A DNA stretch of 1,950 nucleotides, from the NCBI RefSeq assembly GCF_003334385.1, contig NZ_QOWN01000106.1; one strand, 5' to 3'. Both the position numbers and the translations under genes were made by a program. Below, piece after piece: positions 899 through 953 of this stretch; position 1 is the first letter of the stretch; each line of letters begins with the position of its first letter. Source of the stretch: Escherichia coli (GTDB lineage Bacteria; Pseudomonadota; Gammaproteobacteria; Enterobacterales; Enterobacteriaceae). The notes beneath the pieces are model-generated. The model saw only the letters and a list, made by a program, of their open reading frames with translations. It searched no databases and was not told the DNA's origin.

Positions 899-940
899 AG
901 GAAATTCCGAAAAACTTCATATTAAAATTCGGAATTTCTT
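899..940 (+). promoter_or_regulatory. 11-bp perfect inverted repeat GAAATTCCGAA-N16-TTCGGAATTTC (5'-leader hairpin or operator) ending 3 nt before a Shine-Dalgarno
   Basis: Bases 901-911 are the exact reverse complement of 928-938, with an AT-rich 16-nt loop. A899-T940 and G900.T939 can extend the stem. It is followed by TTCTTC and then AGGAG (942-946). There is no proper U-run in either orientation, so it is not a canonical terminator. Confidence 0.45.
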
Positions 941-953
941 CAGGAGTAAGCTC

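Follow-up and report, generated by a model that had tools for sequence, protein, structure and literature searches.

The perfect inverted repeat in the leader of a prophage-borne adhesin gene (eib) of Escherichia coli reads best, by a modest leaning on our part, as a DNA-level pair of RcsB/RcsAB-type operators that would control eib. The two arms of the dyad are the inner parts of two pseudo-palindromic 14-bp boxes (named Box L and Box R). It is probably these boxes, and not the stem, that have been conserved, as argued by the fall of the variation between homologous leaders at the positions that the RcsB consensus leaves free (N positions). The boxes match the consensus, their conservation follows it, they are spaced by three or four helical turns, and one of them is nearly identical to a box of the rcsA gene. 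RcsB binding, the sign of the regulation and the position of the promoter are what we infer from these observations.

The eib locus and its inverted repeat

The window, that is, the whole stretch of 1,950 nt that was analysed, is a prophage eib locus of E. coli with a tail-fibre assembly gene on its 5' side and a YadA-like adhesin gene on its 3' side. The features discussed below are the following.

Positions 1 to 234, plus strand: 3' end of the prophage tail-fibre assembly gene (C-terminus; DUF4376), from Pfam PF14301 (E = 4.6e-11) and the locus annotation.
Positions 892 to 897, plus strand: TATAGT, a -10-like TAnnnT hexamer that abuts Box L in every class (T892, A893 and T897 invariant).
Positions 897 to 910, unstranded: Box L, TAAGGAAATTCCGA, an RcsB/RcsAB-box-like 14-mer with the left dyad arm, matching the consensus.
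Positions 901 to 938, unstranded: the dyad, with perfect 11-bp arms GAAATTCCGAA (901-911) and TTCGGAATTTC (928-938) and a 16-nt A+T loop, the same as the 'stem_loop' of AF151091.1.
Positions 912 to 927, unstranded: A+T-only spacer or loop, where most of the polymorphism of the class falls and several -10-like hexamers lie (CATATT, TAAAAT).
Positions 929 to 942, unstranded: Box R, TCGGAATTTCTTCA, an RcsB-box-like 14-mer with the right dyad arm and one mismatch to the secondary consensus.
Positions 941 to 954, unstranded: degenerate third box position, CAGGAGTAAGCTCA, which includes AGGAG (942-946) and aligns with the right box of the long-spacer classes (TCGGAATATCCTGA).
Positions 954 to 1031, plus strand: mini-ORF of 25 codons (MRAARHQIFFIYPMLNCFICIQIIL) from the list of open reading frames, unconserved as a gene.
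Positions 957 to 1007, plus strand: hairpin 2, a long stem-loop with a U-rich run on its 3' side, terminator- or attenuator-like in single-sequence folds.
Positions 996 to 1024, plus strand: best sigma-70-like promoter candidate (TTGAAC, 17-nt spacer, GATAAT), whose score of 9.6 is the highest in the window leader.
Positions 1009 to 1018, unstranded: TTTGTATACA, a block invariant in all classes, from invariant columns in two alignments.
Positions 1042 to 1950, plus strand: 5' part of the gene of an Eib-type YadA-like trimeric autotransporter adhesin, from the RefSeq 'YadA-like family protein' at a 99.6% identical locus.

An intergenic region of 807 bp separates the tail-fibre assembly gene from ATG 1042, where the adhesin gene opens to extend past the window end. 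No Pfam domain was found in the 303-aa N-terminal part of the adhesin that the window encodes, the YadA anchor lying past the window end. Of 5,426 complete E. coli genomes, 27 contain the region 600-1100 at 93-99.6% identity, in 70 places altogether. All of these are chromosomal, within prophages and 5' of genes annotated as 'YadA-like / YadA C-terminal domain-containing protein'. In the phage collection, the window leader is around 93% identical to the leader of eibA in P-EibA, a prophage of strain ECOR-9. This match, together with the annotation of the prophage YadA-like genes, identifies the downstream gene as that of an Eib-type immunoglobulin-binding adhesin, a prophage 'moron'. The eib leaders have a G+C content of 32-39%.

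Eib proteins are known for non-immunological binding of immunoglobulins and for the chain-like adherence of LEE-negative Shiga-toxin-producing E. coli, and their expression varies strongly with strain, static culture, stationary phase and 37 °C. IbrB, of the IbrAB activators, is ParB-like. Sandt et al. are said to have found in 2002 that K-12 lysogens, in which RcsB is present, make little Eib unless ibrAB is supplied. The dependence of Eib expression on condition and strain has been described (PMC4352079, PMC5450701), and IbrAB is the sole published activator of eib, as cited in PMC7649339.

The arms of the dyad are 100% complementary with 16 nt between them and, as originally predicted, form the longest perfect inverted repeat in the window when loops of 3-30 nt are considered. 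A repeat of 11 bp or more was reached in 3 of 300 dinucleotide shuffles of the window (about 1%). The range 899-946 given earlier comprises the dyad proper (901-938), its flanks and AGGAG. The repeat is already known and has been annotated since 2000: GenBank entry AF151091.1 (prophage P-EibA, ECOR-9) has a 'stem_loop' at 3777-3814 that consists of the identical 38 nt. Entries AF151674-6 (P-EibC, D and E of ECOR-9) place a 'stem_loop' at the corresponding position 5' of their gene, which differs from the P-EibA feature in being a weak A+T-only hairpin between the boxes (-4.2 kcal/mol). The 'stem_loop' features of AF151091 and AF151674-6 carry no functional note.

The same dyad is present in 54 retrieved loci, and its perfect form is confined to one close class whose members are 98-99.5% identical. 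Among the around 54 sequences (7 haplotypes) of this class, the variation from Box L to Box R is limited to about 5 sites of the spacer, including one 1-nt deletion, and spares both boxes. Invariant boxes around a varying spacer point to constraint, of a kind to be expected from a stem as much as from a pair of protein sites.

Two boxes shared by the leader classes

Homologous leaders were collected by low-stringency BLAST, by searching IMG/VR for the invariant block TTTGTATACARAKMAWTT and by one metagenome scan. They fall into around eight classes: eibA-type (the class of the window), GER2/SCU-171, eibC/D/E, 04-00955, L046/L103, FHI_NMBU_11 (FHI11), UTAK-6 and CP55. Over the leader, the other classes share about 70-77% identity with the window. 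The IMG/VR scan is independent of the dyad region and therefore provides an unbiased sample for it. Pairwise identity, with its high baseline on short segments, did not mark a left boundary of the conserved module. A pattern of three DNA elements gave 0 matches in 185,579 species-representative genomes. The two-box pattern in IMG/VR returned eib leaders only, plus around 11 chance matches in low-G+C phages, so the module is not a general phage element.

The RcsB box has been defined as TN(G/A)GAN4TC(T/C)NA, with the weaker form TN(G/A)GAN4(A/C)CTNA (PMC7913699), here the primary and the secondary consensus, and an older RcsAB consensus is TaAGaatatTCctA (PMC4325325). The reverse complement of Box L, TCGGAATTTCCTTA, matches the weaker form exactly, and Box L agrees with the RcsAB consensus at 11 of 14 positions. 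Box R is invariant in the approximately 54 sequences of the window class, although the pattern used to find the metagenome loci already prescribed part of it. A left and a right box were found in every class once the search was anchored on the conserved cores, and every true eib leader carries Box L with at most one mismatch in a sample gathered without reference to the boxes. The boxes of six classes are as follows.

Window class: left TAAGGAAATTCCGA (897-910), right TCGGAATTTCTTCA (929-942).
eibC class: left TAAGACAAATCCTA, right TCGGAATATCCTGA.
FHI11 class: left TAAGATATTTCCTA, right TAGGAATATCCTCA.
UTAK-6 class: left TAAGAAAAATCCCA, right TCGGAATACCCTTA.
L046 class: left TAAGATAAATCCTA, right TTGGAATATCCTGA.
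GER2 class: left TACGATAATTCCTA, right TGCGAATAATCCTG.

In all classes with a long spacer, the left box matches the primary consensus exactly and the right box matches the secondary consensus exactly; both boxes are exact in five classes other than that of the window. The fit is poorer in GER2, where the left box has one mismatch and the right box at least two. The information content of the RcsB consensus is low (around 14 bits), and a single exact match in the 1,950-base window is unremarkable, at least one being present in 44 of 200 shuffles. Since a match in one window is not significant, the case is built on the comparison between classes and not on the window by itself. Two or more exact matches per 203-nt leader were obtained in 0.02-0.1% of dinucleotide shuffles. 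Furthermore, 13 of 16 positions specified by the consensus (1, 3-5, 10-12 and 14 of each box) are invariant, compared with 4 of 12 N positions (Fisher p = 0.019), and the mean entropy is 0.11 at the specified positions versus 0.72 at the N positions (p = 0.002), with the sequences treated as unrelated in both comparisons. Fit to the consensus, constraint on the putative contact positions and resemblance to a supported site (see below) are thus found together, as would be expected of RcsB boxes, although the choice of motif involves hidden multiple testing over possible regulators. As DNA, the repeat had been predicted to be a dimer operator with half-sites 27 bp apart. An operator is indeed the better of the two readings that had been offered, whereas the single split dimer gives way to two complete 14-bp boxes.

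Measured from start to start, the boxes are 32 bp apart in the window class, 33 bp apart in GER2 and 43-44 bp apart in the other classes, which corresponds to three or four helical turns, and the short and long spacings differ by 11 bp, or one helical turn. By our own count, Box L lies 75-76 bp from the next conserved block (CAGATT) in both spacing types, and this constant distance means that the difference in spacing is not an indel. The alignment thus points to three box positions (0, +32 and +43), of which the short classes would use the middle one and the long classes the distal one. The middle position is reduced to a half-site (CGGAAC, GGGAT or TGGAT) in the long classes. At the distal position, CAGGAGTAAGCTCA of the window has 2 mismatches to the secondary consensus by our own count, and the GER2 counterpart is CTGGAATAAGCTGA. 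Two further readings, CATCAGATTTTCTTTA as an IHF site and the middle half-site as a GAD box, were judged by eye to misfit the respective consensus and were rejected.

RNA folding, the mini-ORF and the promoter candidates

Folded as RNA, the dyad grows to a stem of 13 pairs (899-911 with 928-940) with an energy of -13.8 kcal/mol (z = -3.0). This agrees with the prediction of a stable plus-strand stem just 5' of AGGAG (942-946), which starts after a 3-nt gap past the right arm and is followed by an ATG at 954. The minus strand of the dyad folds equally well (-13.1 kcal/mol, z = -3.2). The proposed RNA roles (protection of the 5' end, an RNase III site or modulation of the ribosome-binding site) gained no comparative support across the eight classes. 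For the covariation that had been suggested as a check, 66.3% of the cells of the 13-bp helix pair on the eight-class alignment, compared with 61.4% in column shuffles and 67.3% when the partners are slid by +1 column, and the two central C-G pairs of the stem are broken in 4-5 of 8 sequences. The alignment thus gives no indication of pairing kept through compensatory changes, which would mark a conserved cis-regulatory RNA hairpin. An Rfam scan of the whole window (E up to 10) returned two matches at chance level, both away from the dyad.

The energies of the folds from Box L to Box R range from -13.8 kcal/mol in the window class through about -5 in GER2 and -4.2 in eibC/D/E to -2.6 in UTAK-6/CP55. 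The eibC/D/E and UTAK-6/CP55 leaders keep both boxes and fold at only -2.6 to -4.4 kcal/mol. The original prediction had tied its case to the presence of the dyad at homologous loci: the perfect form is kept in the window class, but the stem is largely lost in eibC/D/E and UTAK-6. Other hairpins in this region have different partners; the left box pairs with the middle half-site in L046/L103 (-13.5 and -15 kcal/mol) and with the distal box in FHI11 (-10.7 kcal/mol), and L012 has a hairpin in the same region (-10.6 kcal/mol). Positions 13 of the left box and 2 of the right box (L13 and R2), which would pair in the hairpin, are the most variable positions of the boxes. They are complementary in the window (G-C, the pair G909-C930) and in FHI11 (T-A), and non-complementary in eibC (T/C), L046 (T/T), UTAK-6 (C/C) and CP55 (T/C).

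The sequence AGGAG, previously described as a strong Shine-Dalgarno, is unique to the window class and aligns with the CGGAA core of the right box in the long classes. The ATG of the mini-ORF is ATA in the GER2 and eibC/D/E classes, and the lengths and frames of the ORFs differ. UTAK-6 and FHI11 have counterparts with the same start position, and the only ORF of eibC, 12 codons long, opens within hairpin 2. The end of the mini-ORF (CIQII-stop) recurs because it is encoded in the invariant DNA block TTTGTATACAGATAATTT. Neither start codon nor ribosome-binding site is conserved in the way that a leader peptide or upstream ORF would suggest, and the coupling of dyad, Shine-Dalgarno and mini-ORF appears to be specific to one class, with no conserved design. 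The claim of a control element for the mini-ORF and the adhesin therefore stands in part: a non-chance, non-terminator element does precede the adhesin gene, but its coupling to the mini-ORF is class-specific.

Further downstream, a long hairpin is present at the position of hairpin 2 in every class despite differing sequences, with z scores of -3 to -7 except in the window, whose copy is the weakest (-14.7 kcal/mol, z = -1.1). Examples of its stem are GCCGUAA/UUACGGC, GGCAACG..GUGUCAG/CUGACAC..CGUUGCU and a perfect 17-bp stem in FHI11, and directly 3' of it lie the U-rich run and an invariant GUAUACA. A simple terminator scan misses hairpin 2 because its loops exceed 8 nt. The consensus energy that RNAalifold computed for the downstream leader, aligned with MAFFT, is near zero; this alignment is not structure-aware, and single-sequence folds were therefore used. 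The structural conservation of hairpin 2 suggests that plus-strand RNA crosses the leader. In one construct, 168 bp of upstream DNA was enough for expression of eibG from a plasmid (PMC13534694), a length compatible with the dyad lying inside or outside the RNA.

Promoter scoring yielded four candidates with similar scores, none of them both strong and conserved: TATAGT (892-897), a spacer hexamer, CAGATT (972-977) and TTGAAC-17-GATAAT (996-1024). TATAGT has high -10 scores and poor -35 scores in all classes. For the candidate at 996-1024, a simple promoter scan found nothing equivalent in three other classes, and the count of promoter-like sites in the whole window is within chance.

A putative RcsB operator pair and competing explanations

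The closest known counterpart of the eib boxes is found at rcsA. The -264 box of E. coli K-12 rcsA (TAAGGATTATCCGAAAAA) is identical to window positions 897-914 (TAAGGAAATTCCGAAAAA) at 15 of 18 positions, and all three differences fall in the central N4 of its shape, a 14-bp pseudo-palindrome TAAGG-N4-TCCGA followed by AAAA. The RcsB box of the Salmonella rcsA promoter, TAAGGTTTATCCGA, has been placed at -264 (PMC7913699 Table 2), and this position, counted from the start codon, is shared with the K-12 sequence. The rcsA gene has two RcsAB boxes in A+T-rich, H-NS-bound DNA around 170 bp upstream of the start (PMC11879457). K-12 rcsA also has TAATATAATTCCGT, another box-like sequence, at a distance of 33 bp on the upstream side, close to the 32-bp spacing at eib; it is presumably the rcsA 'box1'. 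Binding and autoregulation have been shown by experiment for rcsA, whereas the eib boxes are known here from sequence. The eib boxes also differ in forming a perfect 11-bp inverted repeat and, in some classes, in having a third position offset by 11 bp.

Other systems share part of this layout. At flhDC (an RcsAB box downstream of the start) and csgD (four RcsB sites around the start), arrays of 14-mers near or over the promoter act as repressor sites (PMC12388358, PMC7913699). These sites lie at or downstream of mapped starts. They would be a model for eib if its promoter lay within the spacer that separates the two boxes. BglJ-RcsB at bgl and leuO binds as a dimer around 75-100 bp upstream and counters H-NS in a manner dependent on helical phasing, and its motif is asymmetric with one RcsB-like half (PMC3950696), whereas the eib boxes fit the RcsB consensus in both halves. 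Among adhesins, yadE of Yersinia pseudotuberculosis is a YadA-family gene turned on by Rcs, through an igaA insertion or rcsB overexpression (bioRxiv 10.1101/2020.03.31.019323); it has no mapped binding site, and neither yadE nor its leader is related to eib. The literature searched contained no link between Rcs and Eib, nor a reading of the repeat as an RcsB-type box pair.

We propose that the operator consists of two 14-bp boxes for a regulator of the FixJ/NarL type, most likely RcsB of the Rcs phosphorelay, either as a homodimer or together with RcsA or some other auxiliary partner. Box L (897-910) and Box R (929-942) would each hold a dimer, and the 32-bp spacing of around three turns would keep the two dimers on one face of an A+T-rich spacer that is probably bent. 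The perfect 11-bp dyad would then follow from the pseudo-palindromic nature of the box, any two copies of which form an inverted repeat. The boxes lie approximately 85-130 bp upstream of the candidate promoter at 996-1024, from where the bound regulator may tune eib transcription. With this promoter, the boxes would be at roughly -128 and -96, an activating or anti-silencing arrangement like those of rcsA and bgl; with a promoter in the spacer, they would bracket the -10 element and may repress, as at flhDC and csgD. We favour activation or relief of silencing, because Rcs activates yadE and most RcsB-activated genes carry a box upstream of the start (PMC7913699), with the paired upstream boxes of rcsA as an analogy. 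The low Eib output reported for K-12 lysogens speaks against RcsB, and so does the complementarity in three classes (window, FHI11 and L046), which reaches into N positions left unread by RcsB; this complementarity, beyond the need of two boxes, leaves room for a secondary role as an RNA or DNA hairpin.

An operator for another factor is somewhat unlikely: an IbrAB-dependent activator, a GadE-RcsB or BglJ-RcsB heteromer, or a site of H-NS nucleation or relief would share the position-specific, protein-like constraint, and spacing by whole turns suits any dimeric or looping DNA binder. It would also fit the place of IbrAB as the only published activator, the low G+C content of the leader, the RcsB half-site wwTTCykA common to RcsB heteromers, and the action of BglJ-RcsB as an H-NS antagonist from around 100 bp upstream (PMC3950696). 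However, both halves of each box fit the homodimer/RcsAB consensus, and Box L is nearly identical to the rcsA box. An RNA stem-loop in the eib leader, that is, a 13-bp 5' hairpin transcribed from upstream of 899 that serves mRNA stability, processing or access to AGGAG and the mini-ORF, is unlikely on the present comparison. Its stability (z = -3), the constant arms around a varying loop within the class, the change of G909-C930 to T-A in FHI11 and the sizeable hairpins of FHI11, L046/L103 and L012, albeit with other partners, speak for it. So do the plus-strand RNA suggested by conserved hairpin 2 and the TAnnnT at 892-897, which could start an RNA at about 904 and make the hairpin 5'-terminal. 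It is countered by pairing near the level of shuffled and slid columns, by the broken core C-G pairs, by the boxes that persist in eibC/D/E and UTAK-6/CP55 where the fold is weak, and by L13/R2, most variable and mostly unmatched. The equal folding of both strands, the lack of an Rfam match at the dyad and the unconserved AGGAG and mini-ORF start weigh in the same direction.

A composite switch, for which we see little probability, would combine these elements: an array of three RcsB-type positions (0, +32 and +43 bp) combined differently from one prophage lineage to another, with the transcript in some of them also folding into a 5' hairpin that would act jointly with hairpin 2, just ahead of the start codon, or else the array as the target of IbrAB. 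That the repeat is a relic without function, having come from a recent inverted duplication or arisen by chance as a palindrome of the A+T-rich prophage, is very improbable. The restriction of the perfect dyad to one class of 98-99.5% identity would suit such an origin, as would the higher chance complementarity of A+T-rich DNA, but only 1% of shuffles reach 11 bp, the within-class differences between the boxes fall in the spacer, and both boxes persist at homologous positions in classes of around 70% identity. The lowest probability, close to nil, goes to a terminator of the upstream tail-fibre operon or of a minus-strand transcript. The repeat is a stable hairpin between two genes, but, as the statement that it is no classical terminator had it, both strands lack a U-run and the terminator scan is silent at 899-946; in addition, only 3 of the 11 perfect pairs are G-C, the loop has 16 nt, and terminator-like hairpins lie elsewhere (242-259, 371-388 and 538-559 on the minus strand). 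An intrinsic terminator at the dyad was rejected on the missing U-run and scanner match.

Should the boxes prove to be RcsB sites, the host's Rcs regulon for envelope stress and surface sensing would gain a prophage 'moron' adhesin. This would add one prophage adhesin to a very large known regulon and leave the knowledge of RcsB action unchanged. Were the composite switch or the IbrAB target true, a phage-borne adhesin for immune evasion would be wired to host envelope-stress sensing at both the DNA and the RNA level. For the biology of Eib, the operator pair would offer a concrete, mutable 46-bp target for studying the timing of adhesin production, and a handle on the condition- and strain-dependent expression of Eib, which is unexplained apart from the poorly understood IbrAB activators.

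A stem-loop and an invariant block upstream of eib

In all of the eib leader classes, the divergent groups of sequence upstream of this YadA-like adhesin gene, a long stem-loop is located immediately 5' of the invariant TTTGTATACA, and its primary sequence differs between classes.

957-1007, plus strand: hairpin 2, with homologous positions in six other eib loci (L004, L005, L006, L010, L012 and L013)

The z-scores of hairpin 2 range from -3 to -7 among the classes, except for the window copy, which is the weakest (z = -1.1). Hairpin 2 resembles a terminator or an attenuator, lying only about 35 nt upstream of the eib start codon. 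The TTTGTATACA block (within 1009-1031 of the window, and in the homologous loci) is unchanged in all classes, and the upstream ORF, where present, translates it as ...CIQII-stop and terminates 10-16 nt 5' of the eib ATG. The block may serve as a -10 region, may belong to hairpin 2 as its U-tract side, or may be coding. The 10-nt sequence GTATACA(A/G)AT is present twice in the window, at 801-810 and 1012-1021, about 210 bp apart; the pair appears among the inverted repeats (as I8) since GTATAC is a palindrome in its own right.

Box-like sequences and palindromes

The AGGAG at 942-946, which the original prediction called a strong Shine-Dalgarno sequence, matches in the alignment, column for column, the CGGAA core that the other leader classes have in their right-hand box. 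Window positions 941-954 look like a degenerate third box, offset by 11-12 bp from Box R (929-942), the right-hand one of the two candidate RcsB-type boxes upstream of eib. In the eibC, eibD and eibE leaders, the depositors of GenBank AF151674-6 annotated an upstream 29-nt stem-loop composed only of A+T (TAAATTTA-N13-TAAATTTA), which sits between the left and right boxes and has a folding energy of only about -4 kcal/mol.

844-872 of the eibC, eibD and eibE loci (L005, L006, L007): annotated A+T-only stem-loop

A separate cluster of palindromes was observed at 705-750 of the window.

710-727: palindrome CATCAGATTGTGCTGATG
711-723 with 738-750: inverted pair

The first 9 nt of CATCAGATTGTGCTGATG, CATCAGATT, recur at 969-977, the start of hairpin 2, and positions 712-725 carry one mismatch to the RcsB consensus.

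Tandem units on the minus strand

On the minus strand, 361-700 holds a tandem pair of units, each about 170 nt long, with 75% column identity. Both contain the perfect 16-mer TACGAAAATTCTGTAT (the reverse complement of 462-477 and 639-654), and each ends in a G+C hairpin with a U-run.

371-388, minus strand: hairpin and U-run, end of one unit
538-559, minus strand: hairpin and U-run, end of the other unit
242-259, minus strand: third G+C hairpin with a U-run

All five terminator-like matches in the window lie on the minus strand, versus 1.4 expected. The units look like small minus-strand transcription units, as candidate sRNAs or tiny ORFs, and found no match in Rfam.

Genomic settings of eib

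In E. coli SCU-171 (L009) and strain 04-00955 (L012), the eib leader and gene occur without the tail-fibre assembly gene upstream, the neighbour there being an IS21-family ISEc12 transposase or an LPD38-domain protein. Such varied settings are consistent with eib being a mobile 'moron' cassette.
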